DNA from: a virus
Lineage: Duplodnaviria > Heunggongvirae > Uroviricota > Caudoviricetes
DNA: 10,302 nt
IMG/VR virus record: IMGVR_UViG_2718217859_000003
Strand: one strand, 5' to 3'
Below are positions 4,448 to 8,546 of this stretch, one piece after another. A program made the translations under genes and the position numbers. The notes beneath the pieces are model-generated. The model ran no database searches. It had not been told where the DNA came from and saw only the letters and a program-made list of their open reading frames with translations. Position 1 is the stretch's first letter, and every line of letters begins with the position of its first letter.

Positions 4448-6253
4448 TTAATTTTTGCTATCGTCATTAGTGACCGATACACATGATGGCATCCAGTCTT
4501 CTGATTCCTCCTTCAGTGTCACGTTTGAACGCAAACCGTGCTTCGTTTTCCGTTTCATATACTCCCTGCCATATTCCGCCATTGCCCCCGGAATATCTTT
4601 ACCGAAGCGCGTCAGTGTTACAGGCTTACCGAATCCGTGTGCCCTCATATATGCCAGATAGGCGTGATAAAGATACCTGCGCGGACTGAACGGAATAATT
4701 TCGGCATTACCCACTAACAGACCATCACACATTACCGACGACATGAGATAGCCGCAGAAGTCCACCAGCGAATCGCCCTCGCGTTTTATCACCAGAGCTT
4801 CTTCTGATTTCTGCTGCTCATACAGCAAGCGTTTAGCTTCGTCCTGGTCAGAAAAACGAGTAAGCAGGTGGCGAATCACAACCGCCAGCTCTCCTTCTAT
4901 TTTTTCTGCCAGCATGGAGTCGCGTTCGTTTTCCGGTACAACCTCCGAAAAATTGAATATCACCCGACGACGTGAGATCCCCCCGCTGCGGTCACTGAAT
5001 GACATGGCGTTATTGTTCACCGCCAGCACGACCGCCTGAATGCGTGTTGAGTAGGGGGCTTTATGCTTCGGGTCGATTGCCACCTTGTCACCGCCTGTAA
5101 TGGCCTTAATTCCTGCGCCATCACCAGCGTAGCGGGTCATATCCGGCATGATAATCAGCGAAAAGCCAACCACTAACGCGCGTTCCCTGGCATCTTCCAG
5201 CGCCTTCATGCTTGCCGATACCGTGTTGGCCTTACCCGCCAGCATGGTGCAAATCTCCGCCATTACGCTTTTACCGCTCCCACCCGGCCCCGTTACCTCA
5301 AGAAATAACTGCCAGTCGTATCGGTTCGCCAGCACCATGAATAACGCCGCCAGTACGCGATCCGCTTTACGGTCATTCTCTGCCACCGAACGGCGCAACC
5401 ATTTCCAGAAATTCGGCGCATGCGTTGCCAGCGTTTCCCCCTCTGCTGGCGGGCTGAACGGTAATTCACTGGCAATTAACAGCCAGTCGTTTTTGTCATG
5501 CTCCCGAAAATCGCCTGTCCGGGTATCAAAAACACCGTTACTGAATCCAATCAGGTTACGGGCGGTATTCCCCATTACGGGCAAACTTAACTTCATGGTA
5601 TCGACCGCCGATTTGATGGCGTTCTGCGAATAACTAATCTCCGCATCAATAAAAATCTGCGCCATAGCCCGCTGTAACTCTTTATCCTGTACCGGCTCCC
5701 ATACAACGCCGTTGTAGTGGTGAACGGTGTCAGAGTCCGCATTGATTGCCAGTTCACCGCCATAACGTGCCAGGAGAACTTCGCCGCGCTGGCTTGCTCC
5801 CATCTGGTTAAGAGCCAGTGGTGCGGCGTTGTCTTCTGTTTTTTTCTTAACAGGAAGCTGAATAACCAGACCATCAGAAAGATTCTGGCGCTCACGGGCC
5901 AGATATTCGCGCCAGTTTTCCACCTCCTGACCGTGCATTCCCTCAGGGTAATATCTCGCATCCCGTACACCTGCCGCCGCCAGCTTTTGCCCGATGGCAT
6001 TAATATTTGACGGCTTGATGTGGCCTGCCTTGTACAGCCGGACATAATAGCGACCATCGTCGATAATTTTCAGGTCTGCCAGTTCATCAAGCTGGCTGTC
6101 TCCCAGCCATACAGGCGGGACGTTATCGCCAGCAAGTCGCCCGTCCTGTTCCTGCCATTGTTTCGCGTGCGCCCAGGCATCACTACCCGCAAAAATAATG
6201 ACTTCGGTCATTTTGTCGTGCGGCTGTTTTTTTAAGTTTGGTGCCAGTTTCAT
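4448..6253 (-). CDS. Replicative primase-helicase, P4 alpha-like (phage/plasmid primase with P-loop NTPase and C-terminal DNA-binding region)
   Basis: 601-aa ORF with SD-like AGGGG upstream. Walker A motif VTGPGGSGKSV in the middle; the N-terminal region fits a primase domain. Its position directly upstream of the cognate iterons matches P4 alpha and PICI pri-rep genes. Confidence 0.85.
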   Translation of the reverse strand: MKLAPNLKKQPHDKMTEVIIFAGSDAWAHAKQWQEQDGRLAGDNVPPVWLGDSQLDELADLKIIDDGRYYVRLYKAGHIKPSNINAIGQKLAAAGVRDARYYPEGMHGQEVENWREYLARERQNLSDGLVIQLPVKKKTEDNAAPLALNQMGASQRGEVLLARYGGELAINADSDTVHHYNGVVWEPVQDKELQRAMAQIFIDAEISYSQNAIKSAVDTMKLSLPVMGNTARNLIGFSNGVFDTRTGDFREHDKNDWLLIASELPFSPPAEGETLATHAPNFWKWLRRSVAENDRKADRVLAALFMVLANRYDWQLFLEVTGPGGSGKSVMAEICTMLAGKANTVSASMKALEDARERALVVGFSLIIMPDMTRYAGDGAGIKAITGGDKVAIDPKHKAPYSTRIQAVVLAVNNNAMSFSDRSGGISRRRVIFNFSEVVPENERDSMLAEKIEGELAVVIRHLLTRFSDQDEAKRLLYEQQKSEEALVIKREGDSLVDFCGYLMSSVMCDGLLVGNAEIIPFSPRRYLYHAYLAYMRAHGFGKPVTLTRFGKDIPGAMAEYGREYMKRKTKHGLRSNVTLKEESEDWMPSCVSVTNDDSKN

Positions 6254-6549
6254 TTTTTACCCCTGAATCCGTTAATCATGGTTTTCAGCTTCTGGATGTT
6301 TGCCCGTGCCCTGGCGTTGCTGGTGGGCACGTTATGCGGCGCGGTCTGTACCAGAGAAAAATCACGCCGGAACTGATAAACAGGCATCACGCAATCATAT
6401 TCGTAACCTTCACGGCGGTAAGTTACGCACCGTCCCGCCACGCCCTTAATCATTACCGTGCCGCCGTACTGGTCGCGGTAAATATCACCGCGCGTAATTT
6501 TAGGGTGAGTGTTGCCACTGGCAGTTAAGCTAGAATATTTAAGTTTCAT
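6250..6549 (-). CDS. Hypothetical protein, 99 aa, translationally coupled to the primase-helicase
   Basis: Its stop and the primase start overlap as ATGA at 6250-6253. Part of the leftward operon. Confidence 0.55.
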   Translation of the reverse strand: MKLKYSSLTASGNTHPKITRGDIYRDQYGGTVMIKGVAGRCVTYRREGYEYDCVMPVYQFRRDFSLVQTAPHNVPTSNARARANIQKLKTMINGFRGKK

Positions 6550-6555
6550 TATTTT

Positions 6556-6789
6556 TTATTCTCCGGTGTGCTGTTCTTTATATCTGTCGTGCAATTGGTC
6601 TATTTCTTGTAGCTCCATTATTACAGGCTCAAGAAGCGTTATTAATGATGTAATAATCCGCGTTTTTTTTGCATTACGTTCATTATCGCCAAAGGATTCA
6701 AGGCACATCCGCAATATTTCCATCATGTTTTCACTGTGAGAAAGTGCAAGTGATGCGCGGTCTATTGTTTCAAGATAAATATCACGCAT
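6556..6789 (-). CDS. Hypothetical protein, 77 aa
   Basis: ATG at 6789 with GGACGGGG SD-like sequence 7 nt upstream; 6-nt gap to the next gene. Confidence 0.5.
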   Translation of the reverse strand: MRDIYLETIDRASLALSHSENMMEILRMCLESFGDNERNAKKTRIITSLITLLEPVIMELQEIDQLHDRYKEQHTGE

Positions 6790-6813
6790 ATTAATCCCCG
6801 TCCGTTGTTTTTC

Positions 6814-7242
6814 TTAAAACAGCTTCGTCACGAAATCAGCATAGTTAGCGGCAATATCAAGAATATTTAGCCCTGTATCTCTGTGCTCATCAGTGCAAAG
6901 AAAGAAAAAAGCCACCCGCATAATTTCAGATATTGACGAAAGCGCATCAGCCGCATCATCAGGAACGCCGGAAAATTCCTGTTTCAGGGCATTAAAACGA
7001 TCATCACGCATAACCCCCCCATTTTCACAATCAGCAATCAGGATGGCTTTAGCCTCATTCAGTGCCATATCAGCGGTAAGCTGTGCGTAGGCCAGCGAAT
7101 GGGGGATTATTGCCCCTGTATATTCCGGCTCTCTGGTAATGTGTTTTTCTGCGGTTGCTGCCGTGCATGAAATATCAATCAGCGCATCCATCAGCGTTTT
7201 GATGGCTTCGGCGGCTGCGTCCGGACGGGGGTTATTGCACAT
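6814..7242 (-). CDS. Hypothetical protein, 142 aa
   Basis: ATG at 7242 with a strong AGGAGG SD 6 nt upstream; overlaps the end of the upstream 68-aa ORF by 11 nt. Confidence 0.6.
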   Translation of the reverse strand: MCNNPRPDAAAEAIKTLMDALIDISCTAATAEKHITREPEYTGAIIPHSLAYAQLTADMALNEAKAILIADCENGGVMRDDRFNALKQEFSGVPDDAADALSSISEIMRVAFFFLCTDEHRDTGLNILDIAANYADFVTKLF

Positions 7243-7438
7243 GGCGCACCTCCTGACGAATACGGGCGGCGAATACCATCACGCAGCCAGCCGGGGATTG
7301 CTGGCGGGCTTCCTGTTCGCTGGTGGCCTCGATGGTAATCACGCGCGGTTGTGCCGTGCTCAGGGCGATAAAACGCCAGATGTATTTATTCAGGTTGTGC
7401 GAATCCCGCCCTTGCGGGTGTGTGGTATGATTTCTCAT
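7232..7438 (-). CDS. Hypothetical protein, 68 aa, first gene of the leftward replication operon
   Basis: This is the C-terminal part of the 367-aa track ORF, starting at its first plausible ATG (7438), which has a GAGG SD. The rest of that long ORF crosses the control region and is rejected. Confidence 0.45.
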   Translation of the reverse strand: MRNHTTHPQGRDSHNLNKYIWRFIALSTAQPRVITIEATSEQEARQQSPAGCVMVFAARIRQEVRHVQ

Positions 7439-7522
7439 AGCTGCCTCGATACTCTTTCTATCGTTGGTGGTTAGACGCCCTGCATGTGTGCCACCACTGC
7501 GGGGCGTTGCGTTTTTTGATGC

Positions 7523-7579
7523 ACACGTGTTAAGGTGTACACCTACAAAGCAAAAACATAACGCCATAGGTGTACACAT
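7523..7579. promoter_or_regulatory. Divergent control region with palindromic operators
   Basis: ACACGTGT at 7523-7530; perfect 12-bp palindrome AGGTGTACACCT at 7533-7544; near-copy AGGTGTACACAT at 7568-7579 overlapping the SD and start of the RHH gene. Confidence 0.55.
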
Positions 7580-7772
7580 GTCAACAGTTATTAAGCGCGA
7601 TAAAAAACAAAAAGGCACAGGAAAGACCCCACCGTTCCATATGCGTATAGTTCCTGAATTGAAGGAGCAGTTTGATAACGAAGCCAGTAACGATGGAGTA
7701 AGTCTTGCCAACTGGCTTAAAGAGTTGGGGCGCGCCGAACTAAAGCGACGCGGCATTGAACCTAAAGGCTGA
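7578..7772 (+). CDS. Ribbon-helix-helix (Arc/CopG-like) DNA-binding protein, 64 aa
   Basis: ATG at 7578 with an AGGTG SD. The segment FHMRIVPELKEQFDNEAS...SLANWLKELGRAEL fits a strand-helix-helix pattern. The track's longer version starts at a TTG inside the control region and is unlikely. Confidence 0.55.
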   Translation: MSTVIKRDKKQKGTGKTPPFHMRIVPELKEQFDNEASNDGVSLANWLKELGRAELKRRGIEPKG

Positions 7773-7775
7773 TGT

Positions 7776-7895
7776 ATGACCGATAACAAACTTTCTCTAA
7801 CAGAGAATAAACCATCAGGCTTCTTACCAAGAAAAATCCTTGATGAGATCAAACGCCGCCAGCGTAAAAAATCCAAAGGAGCAGACACGGAATAG
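7776..7895 (+). CDS. Micro-ORF, 39 aa, basic C-terminus (not in the ORF track)
   Basis: Translated by hand as MTDNKLSLTENKPSGFLPRKILDEIKRRQRKKSKGADTE. The ATG is 3 nt after the RHH stop, with a weak AAGG SD. Confidence 0.3.
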   Translation: MTDNKLSLTENKPSGFLPRKILDEIKRRQRKKSKGADTE

Positions 7896-7898
7896 CTT

Positions 7899-8063
7899 AT
7901 GCAACAAATACCATACTGGCTTGGCTCTCTGTTTGTATTTGCATTTCTCATGAAATATTGCATTAGCAATGAACTTGTCGGTAATGAAAGTGCATGCGCG
8001 AGCGCTGAAAAAAATATTCCACTTCTCGTATATGAAAACGAAAGCCCTGTGAACCGCAATTGA
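7899..8063 (+). CDS. Micro-ORF, 54 aa, with hydrophobic N-terminal segment (not in the ORF track)
   Basis: Translated by hand as MQQIPYWLGSLFVFAFLMKYCISNELVGNESACASAEKNIPLLVYENESPVNRN. The ATG is 3 nt after the 39-aa stop; the region is AT-rich. Confidence 0.3.
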   Translation: MQQIPYWLGSLFVFAFLMKYCISNELVGNESACASAEKNIPLLVYENESPVNRN

Positions 8064-8159
8064 GCGAAATTTAATGAATTCACTCTTTGCCCACCAGCCG
8101 CAAATGTGGCATTGTTGGCGATGCTCATGCGTTGGGGATAACGTGTAGCTTGTGTCGAA

Positions 8160-8188
8160 GGGCCATCGTGACAGGTGGCCTTTTCTTT
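8160..8188 (+). terminator. Candidate rho-independent terminator for the rightward micro-operon
   Basis: GGGCCA, a 10-nt loop, then TGGCCT (one GU pair), followed by TTTTCTTT. Confidence 0.4.
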
Positions 8189-8226
8189 ACCTGTTATCTG
8201 GCAATTGTGGCGCTTCGTCACACGGT

Positions 8227-8235
8227 TGATATAAT
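8227..8235 (+). promoter_or_regulatory. Candidate extended -10 promoter (TGaTATAAT)
   Basis: Perfect TATAAT at 8230-8235 with TG at 8227-8228; a weak -35-like TTGTGG at 8205-8210. Oriented toward the 3' end of alpA. Confidence 0.3.
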
Positions 8236-8284
8236 TCCCCTGCACTGATCCATTTTTTTCGCAGCAGGTTAATTGTTCGCAAGG

Positions 8285-8309
8285 GCGCTCCGGCAACGGG
8301 GCGCTTTTT
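8285..8309 (+). terminator. Rho-independent terminator with GNRA tetraloop
   Basis: GCGCTCCG-GCAA-CGGGGCGC (8-bp stem including one GU pair) followed by TTTTT. Strand-specific: there is no U-run on the minus strand. Confidence 0.6.
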
Positions 8310-8339
8310 GTTATGTTCATCACGTTACGCCTCACACCA

Positions 8340-8546
8340 TTACGCAGCCGTTCCGCGCGCTTCTTCCTCGCGCTCTTTCAGCCAGGCCAGCACTTCATCT
8401 TCATACCAGCCAACACGACGCAGACCGATTTTGAAGCCTTTCGGAAATTTTCCGGCGTTGATCATGTCCTGTAGCGAACTGTCTGCCTTGATGCGCAGAA
8501 TATTTTTTACTTCCTGACGGGTAAGAATTTTTCTGATTGTTTCCAC
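8340..8546 (-). CDS. alpA: AlpA-family phage transcriptional regulator / excisionase-like HTH protein
   Basis: 68 aa, GTG start with AGGT SD. The pattern FPKGFKIGLRRVGWYEDEVLAWL matches the AlpA core I recall. Small regulator near the integrase, as in P4-like elements and Gram-negative PICIs. Confidence 0.8.
   Translation of the reverse strand: METIRKILTRQEVKNILRIKADSSLQDMINAGKFPKGFKIGLRRVGWYEDEVLAWLKEREEEARGTAA

Follow-up and report, generated by a model that had tools for sequence, protein, structure and literature searches.

What does a short block of rightward reading frames do in the middle of a phage satellite in which every long gene reads leftward? The window, by which we mean the whole stretch of 10,302 nucleotides (nt) analyzed here (IMG/VR record IMGVR_UViG_2718217859_000003), is a satellite of the phage-inducible chromosomal island (PICI) type, about 10 kb long, from E. 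coli, and our finding concerns its control region and sole rightward transcription unit. A preliminary description of positions 7439-8063 had placed there a divergent control region with palindromes, a ribbon-helix-helix (RHH) protein of the Arc/CopG type, and two unreported small open reading frames (ORFs), and had offered either an immunity switch or a toxin–antitoxin or exclusion module as the function. We suggest, with moderate confidence, that an Arc-like repressor, two operators, and a SymR-type antisense RNA guard the replication operon of the satellite, that a slot for cargo genes lies behind the repressor gene, and that a leader coupled to alpA overrides the block. The features of the region are as follows (+, rightward; −, leftward).

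7438-7235, − strand: Icd-like gene, 68 amino acids (aa) (NCBIfam phage_ICD_like, 1.5e-19; phrog_6196, 2.3e-46)
7423-7431, + strand: candidate promoter of the antisense RNA, extended −10 TGgTATGAT, within codons 3-6 of the Icd-like gene
7437-7518, + strand: candidate cis-antisense RNA, ~80 nt, two stem-loops
7528-7536, + strand: candidate promoter P_R, extended −10 TGtTAAGGT
7533-7544: very likely operator O1, AGGTGTACACCT, a perfect palindrome that overlaps the −10 and start region of P_R
7555-7584, − strand: predicted promoter P_L, −35 TTGACA (7584-7579), 18-nt spacer, −10 TATGTT (7560-7555)
7567-7579: very likely operator O2, TAGGTGTACACAT, a near-palindrome in the P_L spacer, covering the RHH start codon and ribosome site
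7578-7772, + strand: Arc-like RHH gene, 64 aa (WP_000108740.1, annotated as hypothetical)
7776-7895, + strand: basic 39-aa ORF, a small conserved protein family
7899-8063, + strand: 54-aa ORF with a hydrophobic N-terminus, weak to moderate evidence
8160-8188, + strand: terminator-like hairpin, GGCCATC...GGTGGCC followed by TTTTCTTT, read from the sequence
7232-8335, − strand: ORF of 367 codons, from GTG at 8335, 4 nt past the alpA stop, or from ATG at 8320 with a GAGG Shine-Dalgarno sequence

The Arc-like protein and its probable operators

Family scans of the 64-aa protein gave matches that are weak but mutually consistent: phrog_228 (Arc-like), 7.8e-6; Pfam HicB, 0.0079; and TraJ, 1e-3. A profile made from 20 homologues matches the Arc repressor of phage P22 (1b28) over residues 12-59, with E = 1.2e-3. 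The AlphaFold2 model (pLDDT, the predicted local distance difference test score, 78.8) has helices at residues 26-38 and 43-57 behind an extended N-terminal segment; DSSP does not assign a β strand to this model, because the strand arises only in the dimer. The best Foldseek matches of the model are to Arc (TM score 0.76-0.89), followed by NikA, CopG, AmrZ, and ParG. The gene has a ratio of nonsynonymous to synonymous substitution rates (dN/dS) of 0.03-0.12. The protein thus has the strand-helix-helix fold, over about 45 residues, and sequence kinship to a characterized member, and we conclude from sequence and model together that it is a real Arc-like RHH protein, as the preliminary description had proposed.

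Close homologues carry the NCBI label 'HicB family antitoxin'. The HicB model covers only residues 20-48 and scores under its cutoff (16.5 vs 21 bits), and a Pfam scan of the 64-aa protein did not find the RNase H-like N-terminal domain of HicB. We rejected membership in HicAB, since there is no HicA, the HicB N-terminal domain is missing, and no partner gene is conserved.

The region in front of the gene was compared in 70 loci with RHH homologues, fetched across Enterobacterales, and the upstream 170 nt have the same layout in about 60 of them. The cassette is kept from E. coli as far as Pasteurella. The leftward operon, the rightward unit, and opposed promoter elements between them bear out the divergent control region described earlier. 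The Icd-like gene, with a GAGG Shine-Dalgarno sequence 5 nt before its ATG, is the first gene of the leftward replication operon, and is followed by a DUF4222 gene and then the primase gene. P_L, which has 10 of 12 consensus matches, is the sole promoter-like site found in a scan, and its −35 overlaps codons 1-3 of the RHH gene. The TTGACA is nearly invariant in 62 non-identical loci, even where TTG is the RHH start codon, and across the same loci a TAnnnT on the − strand lies at a constant distance from it. O2 falls within the P_L spacer in essentially all loci. For P_R, TGnTAAGGT is kept at −50 to −42 in the 62 loci, and the predicted start sites of P_L and P_R are opposed, with a few bases between them.

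The preliminary description had named three GTAC-centred palindromes. Two of these, AGGTGTACACCT and its near-copy AGGTGTACAC at 7568-7577, 35 bp away, are placed as claimed. The 10-mer AGGTGTACAC has five matches at ≤1 mismatch, compared with 0.34 expected, a number reached by 0 of 200 shuffles. The third, ACACGTGT (7523-7530), was rejected as an operator, since it is present in 26 of 200 shuffles and is not conserved; at its position relatives keep only the TG of the extended −10.

The strongest evidence on the operators comes from their variation. In about 60 loci, both copies vary in concert within each locus, and there are at least eight operator types, each matched to one motif in the strand of the protein (xFxxRI). 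The strand motif PFHM goes with the operator core GTGTACAC, QFRM with GTGACCAC, QFKM with GTGGCCAC, TFQI with GTACGTAC, AFQI/V with GTGTGTAC or GTACATAC, (M/L)FNV with GTATAGAC, IFSV with GTATGGAC, and HFKM with TGGGGCCCCA. Given the operator class, the residual entropy at positions 19, 21, and 22 is 0.12, 0.03, and 0.03 bits, compared with 0.7-1.3 bits in the other variable columns. In a profile alignment, positions 19, 21, and 23 of the RHH protein align with Q9, N11, and R13 of Arc, which Raumann and colleagues are said to have identified in 1994 as the base-contacting residues in the Arc–operator structure 1PAR. Strand residues thus track a palindromic operator near the regulated promoter, and O1 and O2 are very likely operators of the 64-aa protein, as judged from this covariation. 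The changes are concentrated in the residues that would read the DNA and in the core of the operator, while the flanks of both stay conserved, as one would expect of specificity switching. In loci where a YlcI/YnfO-type regulator takes the place of the RHH protein, the architecture is the same with another palindrome, ACTGGATTCCAGT, in two copies; a Pasteurella PICI also has this architecture, with a different regulator and different palindromes.

A candidate antisense RNA and a proposed leader behind alpA

What lies between the operators and the Icd-like gene? Stem-loop 1 of the candidate RNA spans 7438-7473, and its loop, CUCUUUC, is complementary to GAAAGAG, which directly precedes the GAGG site of the Icd-like gene; the corresponding loop of relatives holds CUCC, the anti-Shine-Dalgarno sequence itself. 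The second stem-loop (7474-7508) is a GC-rich terminator hairpin with the tail GCGUUUUUUG, a T-run that follows it on the + strand. For the candidate promoter, a TAnnnT lies at a constant distance from the complement of the start codon in about 60 loci. The RNA folds with a minimum free energy of −35.4 kcal/mol (z = −5.0). When each sequence was folded singly on both strands, the hairpin was stabler as + strand RNA in 61 of 61 loci, by a mean of 6.1 kcal/mol, with 145 G-U pairs in the + folds compared with 25 in the − folds; the stem sequences vary among loci. RNAalifold found no structure in a MAFFT alignment of 40 hairpins, in which the stems are out of register.

A profile of 62 cassettes has a single match in an 8-kb stretch, to the 5′ region of symE/symR of E. 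coli K-12 (annotated in NC_000913), on the correct strand and with E = 3.6e-4. In an alignment, the symR region of K-12 and the cassette are in register, including the TAGAAT −10 upstream of symR. Furthermore, SymE_toxin is the first leftward gene in a subgroup of the relatives (8e-17 and 1e-13; among them L036 and L053). In the window, the target of the antisense RNA is the Icd-like gene and not SymE_toxin. Computationally, there is an antisense gene over the 5′ end of its target, with its own promoter and terminator, as in SymE/SymR. We suggest that 7437-7518 is probably a diverged SymR-type RNA, which targets the Icd-like gene instead of SymE.

The RHH cassette is paired with a SymE_toxin gene in a subgroup of loci (L036, L047, L057, L053, L055, and L059), and tRNA-Sec adjoins the first three of these. 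No homologue of the int, alpA, or primase of the window was found near the cassettes of this subgroup. Avs5, dCTP deaminase, PtuA-like, and AriA-like genes lie behind the RHH gene in loci of the same subgroup.

Not noticed in the preliminary description is a long ORF that holds the entire rightward unit on its antisense strand and begins just behind the following gene.

8546-8340, − strand: alpA (68 aa; Pfam Phage_AlpA, 4.5e-8), upstream of the long ORF

From alpA, this ORF passes antisense to the 54-aa, 39-aa, and RHH ORFs and the control region and runs into the Icd-like frame. In 24 non-identical loci, drawn from many genera, this wobble-aligned frame stays open over 549-1602 nt, and the other two − frames there reach at most 273 nt; in about 40 other loci it is open for at most 294 nt. 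The first start codon of the long ORF forms an ATGA overlap with the upstream stop in L005, L018, and L021 and stands 6-8 nt from it elsewhere. Overlaps of 8 nt and gaps of 6-7 nt are among the arrangements in relatives. The window thus shares with the eta leader of P4 a long ORF that, by its position, would be translationally coupled to the alpA/vis homologue. For the window alone, resampling of synonymous codons and of the noncoding parts gives a chance of 0.175 × 0.145 × 0.026, or about 7e-4, for such an open frame. A Fisher test of the avoidance of antisense stops was circular, since the groups are defined by stop absence, and was not used; the case relies on the bimodal ORF lengths, the coupling to the upstream stop codon, and the resampling test. 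The junctions between the + strand ORFs are multiples of three in 10 of 10 cases in loci with the long ORF, compared with 1 of 9 in loci without it, and in the former the small + strand ORFs are all in the one frame compatible with the long ORF.

The long ORF explains the 'Icd-like, partial' fragments that NCBI's annotation pipeline, PGAP, sets here, and also why PGAP annotates an antisense ORF in place of the intact RHH gene in E. coli O157:H7. Since the frame stays open while its sequence drifts, we infer that it is an eta-like leader, kept open for the sake of translation, with the repressor unit nested on the opposite strand. The C4 and isrK RNAs (Rfam) and the Phage_ASH and Bro domains were not found in the window.

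In the O157:H7 case, L089 7002-7745 corresponds to 2743342-2744085 of the FRIK804 record, where RefSeq annotates a 247-aa antisense ORF (WP_001304194.1) and leaves out an RHH gene of 63 aa that is intact (7111-7302, with TTG as its start) as well as a + strand ORF of 62 aa. This element has capsid, protease, and portal genes and adjoins roxA and pepT.

In L076, the leftward leader holds C4 (75.9 bits) and isrK (68.8 bits) at 1778-1966 on the − strand, with the Icd-like fragment proximal to the RHH gene on one side and another Icd-like gene on the other. Translation of these positions gives Pfam Phage_ASH, a hint that conservation of an RNA partly underlies this 'protein family'. The Phage_ASH matches of L076 and L078 were rejected as relevant to the window; they coincide with the C4/isrK leader of L076.

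Just inside the long ORF is a further candidate. At 8231-8312 on the + strand, a perfect TATAAT (8231-8236) stands about 45 nt before a strong + strand terminator (8281-8312), and a 75-nt stretch folds with z = −2.6; conservation was seen only among loci that have the same alpA type. A second small RNA may be encoded here, opposite the opening codons of the long ORF below alpA.

The cargo slot

The content behind the RHH gene is not constant among loci. In relatives, the slot contains Avs5 (E = 0), dCTP deaminase (3e-178), a PDC-M01A/PtuA-like protein (3e-223), an AriA/OLD-like ATPase, a PIN_8 protein, and an effector with two transmembrane segments; PD-T7-1 (1.3e-153) takes this place in an E. 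coli PICI that is inserted in the capsid gene of a prophage. Thus, variable content that includes known defence systems lies between conserved flanks, as in satellite defence hotspots. About 700 complete E. coli genomes, some with elements whose alpA and int differ, have the right flank of the slot in the window, 8082-8130, at 94-98% identity; these roughly 50 bp may serve as an anchor for recombination or as a binding site. PGAP sets 'Icd-like, partial' pseudogenes over them. The hairpin at 8160-8188 is the probable end of the rightward unit; its only match was to the terminator part of the isrD model, and it is absent from the list of a simple terminator scan.

In the window, the slot holds two small ORFs only. 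Their coordinates and that of the RHH gene (7578-7772, 7776-7895, and 7899-8063) and the 3-nt spacing are as given in the preliminary description, and all three are in one frame. The claim that the two are unreported stands insofar as PGAP annotates neither in the identical RefSeq record; relatives of the first and the product of the second are on record elsewhere. Neither has a Pfam, NCBIfam, or PHROG match, and neither was matched by a defence family, though no PADLOC scan was made of them.

Are these ORFs genes? It is conceivable, though doubtful, that both are nonfunctional remnants of recombination, the 39-aa ORF being the leftover 3′ end of a YlcI/YnfO gene and the 54-aa ORF a chance frame. 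The C-terminal 24 aa of the 39-aa product do resemble the tail of the YlcI/YnfO regulator (BLASTP, 4e-7), from which the protein is probably derived, and the missing PGAP annotation also fits a remnant. However, length, start position, and the invariant motif GFLP...K..L...K.RQR.K are retained in this family over three genera, with homologues in E. coli, Citrobacter, and Salmonella, and its dN/dS is 0.11-0.36 in frame, compared with 0.7-2.2 off frame. Annotated relatives include WP_000136964.1, WP_256142062.1, and WP_284693042.1; the large protein search for the family was made with a 41-aa homologue as the query. The ORF begins 3 nt past the stop of the regulator in the window, L002, L076, L078, Citrobacter, and Salmonella, and further downstream in L004 and L077. 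Judged by this conservation, the 39-aa ORF is a real small protein under purifying selection, and it is probably translationally coupled to the RHH gene.

The status of remnant is likelier for the 54-aa ORF. Its dN/dS of 0.36-0.54 is barely under the off-frame values, and the closest pair differs by 4 nonsynonymous and 0 synonymous changes. Its product forms one cluster among 5.8 billion proteins, from E. coli only, and is on record as a GenBank hypothetical protein. On the other side, four nucleotide variants all retain the start and the segment YWLGSLF(V/L)FAFL at 30% nucleotide divergence. The hydrophobic N-terminus noted earlier is real, and is borderline for a membrane helix (Kyte-Doolittle maximum over 19 residues of 1.5; 1.8-1.9 in relatives). 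The 54-aa ORF may be a small membrane peptide or a remnant.

Another family of small basic ORFs (55-65 aa, RFAPCAF.LE.FLKEYR) shares the slot, at 3616-3672 in L004, 2613-2669 in L076, and 7303-7344 in L089. Its members lie on either side of the 39-aa family and share its frame throughout, and a conserved hairpin (GCGCCGTGGTGTGAGG..ACGGC) stands in front of them in L004 and L089. The 55-65-aa ORFs behind 39-aa homologues in Salmonella, Citrobacter, and some E. coli were considered as relatives of the 54-aa ORF and rejected, since they are unrelated to it.

The proposed switch, its rivals, and the satellite

To the sequence features, fold, covariation, homologies, and open frame reported above, our model adds DNA binding, promoter activity, RNA expression, and the whole of the induction step. 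Dimers of the repressor would bind O1 and O2. At O2, the repressor would keep P_L, and hence the Icd-like gene and the replication operon, off; at O1, it would hold its own unit, transcribed from P_R, at a low steady level. The antisense RNA, from the complement of the Icd-like start codon to the conserved terminator, would be a second lock and block translation of the Icd-like gene, whose product is probably toxic. The cargo slot would be expressed at a low level from P_R, here giving the 39-aa protein and the doubtful 54-aa peptide. On induction, AlpA, dependent on the helper, would drive leftward transcription that reads through the repressor unit and collides or interferes with P_R. Translation of the long ORF, coupled to alpA, would shield the transcript from Rho and so carry transcription into the replication genes. 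Since O2 lies in the promoter spacer of the replication operon, the immunity switch of the preliminary description fits the geometry, and a repressor role for the satellite is plausible from the sequence.

Several points weigh against this model. The promoters and the antisense RNA are predicted from consensus, conservation, and homology, and P_R has no recognizable −35. The covariation is between linked features and may come from shared ancestry alone, which inflates associations. The profile match to K-12 symR is modest (13 bits), and Rfam, at both its gathering and E-value thresholds, reports no SymR or other family in the window; it reports none in L036 either. The protein sequence of the long ORF, a wobble-aligned shadow frame, is not conserved, with a dN/dS of 0.78 over the region of the small ORFs compared with 0.39 for the + frame. 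Many of the cargo-rich relatives are selC-linked (tRNA-Sec) islands with SymE and not PICIs. Control by the repressor may extend no further than its own unit and the first gene of the leftward operon, and the one regulator of E. coli PICIs established by experiment is AlpA rather than a repressor (PMC6092414).

In a different explanation, which we think unlikely, the RHH protein would be a local regulator of the cargo operon, AlpA alone would govern induction, and the overlap of O2 with P_L would be a by-product of compactness. The RHH gene does head cargo genes in many loci, and overexpression of AlpA by itself induces EcCICFT073 (PMC6092414). However, P_L and the antisense-RNA cassette are the constant companions of the RHH gene, which is tied to no cargo in particular; the gene is present with no + strand cargo behind it in L082 and L090, and O2 sits in the P_L spacer essentially everywhere.

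We give still less credence to the toxin–antitoxin or exclusion module of the preliminary description, in which the RHH protein would regulate itself and act as the antitoxin, with the 54-aa or the 39-aa peptide as the toxin or exclusion factor. The NCBI name of the homologues and the weak HicB match would agree with it, as would ORF spacing suited to translational coupling, the hydrophobic N-terminus of the 54-aa peptide, and the defence genes in the slots of relatives. However, neither peptide stands behind the RHH gene in the 70 loci of other species, neither has a match to HicA or another family in Pfam, NCBIfam, or PHROGs, and the 54-aa ORF is restricted to E. coli. A pure toxin–antitoxin autoregulator also has no need of operators over P_L. 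The constant partner of the RHH gene is the control cassette upstream, and the content downstream varies. The component that resembles a toxin–antitoxin system would be on the other side of the gene, in the SymR-like RNA over the 5′ end of the leftward gene. That the long − strand ORF is the real gene and the + strand ORFs mere shadows is hardly credible: gene callers do annotate an antisense ORF in O157:H7 (the one of 247 aa), and likewise in Salmonella and Citrobacter, but in every comparison it is the + frame whose dN/dS is lowest, the RHH protein combines an Arc fold with covariation with its operators, and the − ORF has an antisense-like composition, no Pfam match in its N-terminal 300 residues, and no family besides its Icd-like end. 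For the RHH gene, we reject coding by the − strand alone; both strands may be translated.

Returning to the repressor with two operators and an antisense RNA, how does it compare with known systems? The immI region of phage P22, studied by Susskind and co-workers, combines the Arc and Mnt repressors with the sar RNA. Like it, the region described here has a small RHH repressor whose strand residues would read a palindromic operator, with Arc as the best sequence and fold match, operators over closely spaced opposed promoters, and an antisense RNA of about 70-80 nt over the ribosome site of the controlled gene. However, the protein is only about 25% identical to Arc, in place of the 21-bp Arc operator there are two palindromes of 12 bp with a distance of 35 bp, the controlled operon consists of the Icd-like and replication genes of a satellite and not of an antirepressor, and the RNA is SymR-like and not sar. 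SymE/SymR of E. coli K-12 is reportedly a type I toxin–antitoxin locus, as Kawano and colleagues are said to have described in 2007. The cassette shares with it the −10, the complement of the start codon, stem-loop 1 with a sequence like an anti-Shine-Dalgarno, a G(G/A)TTAG motif, and the hairpin, and relatives of the cassette have SymE_toxin genes as the target. It differs in the Icd-like target, in having the RHH protein rather than LexA as the transcriptional repressor, and in falling below every Rfam threshold.

Phage satellites reportedly have defence hotspots, variable slots that often hold anti-phage systems, as Rousset and colleagues are said to have found in 2022. The slot here is similar in its conserved flanks and in content that varies between close relatives. 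In contrast to the P4 hotspot, it lies between alpA and the PICI replication operon; its first gene is that of a repressor, from whose promoter the cargo would be transcribed, and it differs from other defence slots in that the window has the two small ORFs alone. With HicAB, the RHH protein shares a weak match to the C-terminal RHH part of HicB, whereas HicA, the N-terminal domain of HicB, and a conserved partner gene are lacking.

The vis-eta-PLE leader of P4 is a long ORF coupled to the alpA/vis homologue, and its translation was proposed to prevent termination (PMC10111431). The present locus likewise has an alpA-coupled long ORF with an internal promoter for the early or replication operon, and the leader of L076 even has C4 and isrK. 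Unlike the P4 leader, that of the window is without C4/isrK, Phage_ASH, and Bro and has a complete repressor gene and small ORFs on the opposite strand, an arrangement that we have not found described for P4. The master repressors of Gram-positive PICIs are Stl and Rpr; Stl is a large helix-turn-helix protein, inactivated by the helper, as established experimentally (PMC6092414). The position is the same, with the repressor gene diverging from the replication operon at the center of the island, but the protein here is a 64-aa RHH protein whose role as a repressor is predicted from sequence.

The existence of a repressor in Gram-negative PICIs has been called unclear (PMC6092414). A scheme of PICI zones defines this one without mention of an RHH gene (PMC10111431), and another paper lists 'HicB' and 'YlcI/YnfO' as accessory genes, by annotation alone (PMC13612085). 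In the searchable literature, we found no description of an RHH/Arc repressor or a SymR-like RNA in Gram-negative PICIs. Each component is thus of a known kind (Arc/Mnt with sar, SymE/SymR, the P4 eta leader, and satellite defence hotspots), and the region gives a concrete candidate, an Arc-type repressor on the promoter of the replication operon with a SymR-type antisense RNA. A bolder version, which we regard as rather improbable, would make the Arc-like protein the missing master repressor of Gram-negative PICIs and the region a bidirectionally coding switch, in which translation of the leader shuts the repressor off. If this were true, the long ORF would be selected solely to stay open, its translation defeating Rho. 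The at least eight natural pairs of residues and operators are a ready-made code for RHH–DNA recognition, and the slot downstream of the repressor gene is a defined place to seek small or new anti-phage genes. Database labels can also be corrected, where the gene is called 'HicB antitoxin' or 'hypothetical' or has been displaced by an antisense ORF (O157:H7).

The remaining genes named in this study are the following.

10302-9061, leftward: int
6253-4448, leftward: primase
3268-1379, − strand: fusion of a ClpP-like prohead protease and the major capsid protein, 629 aa

With int and alpA at one end, a primase module, co-oriented genes, and an attachment site, the element has the hallmarks of Gram-negative PICIs, which are about 10-15 kb long, and its gene order agrees with the zone scheme of PMC10111431. 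A capsid protein is encoded, yet no portal or terminase was found within the window. RefSeq NZ_CP169309 (L001) is 100% identical over 7200-8400, and the element there is at tRNA-Pro, between yejM and yejO. Its primase is only 46% identical to that of the window and its DUF4222 protein 78%, so that the window, with an identical control region beside these, is a mosaic relative of NZ_CP169309. The divergence over 4448-7242 indicates that recombination couples differing replication modules to one control and cargo module. Of 5426 complete E. coli genomes, 224 have the module at ≥80% query coverage, O157:H7 and E2348/69 among them; in phage records it is rare.

A PerC-family regulator is encoded at 1-372 (− strand). 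The PerC-like gene of a different E. coli PICI represses LEE, the locus of enterocyte effacement, which concerns that gene and not the present locus (PMC11773190). The int-alpA RNA RF02996 of Rfam has no match in the window and was found at 6886-6954 (− strand, 45 bits) in L014, from Pantoea. Finally, in L082-L088, relatives of the RHH gene are in satellites inserted inside the Phage_cap_E capsid gene of lambdoid prophages. These bring their own capsid and decoration genes and are of the type described as helper-embedded PICIs (PMC10111431).

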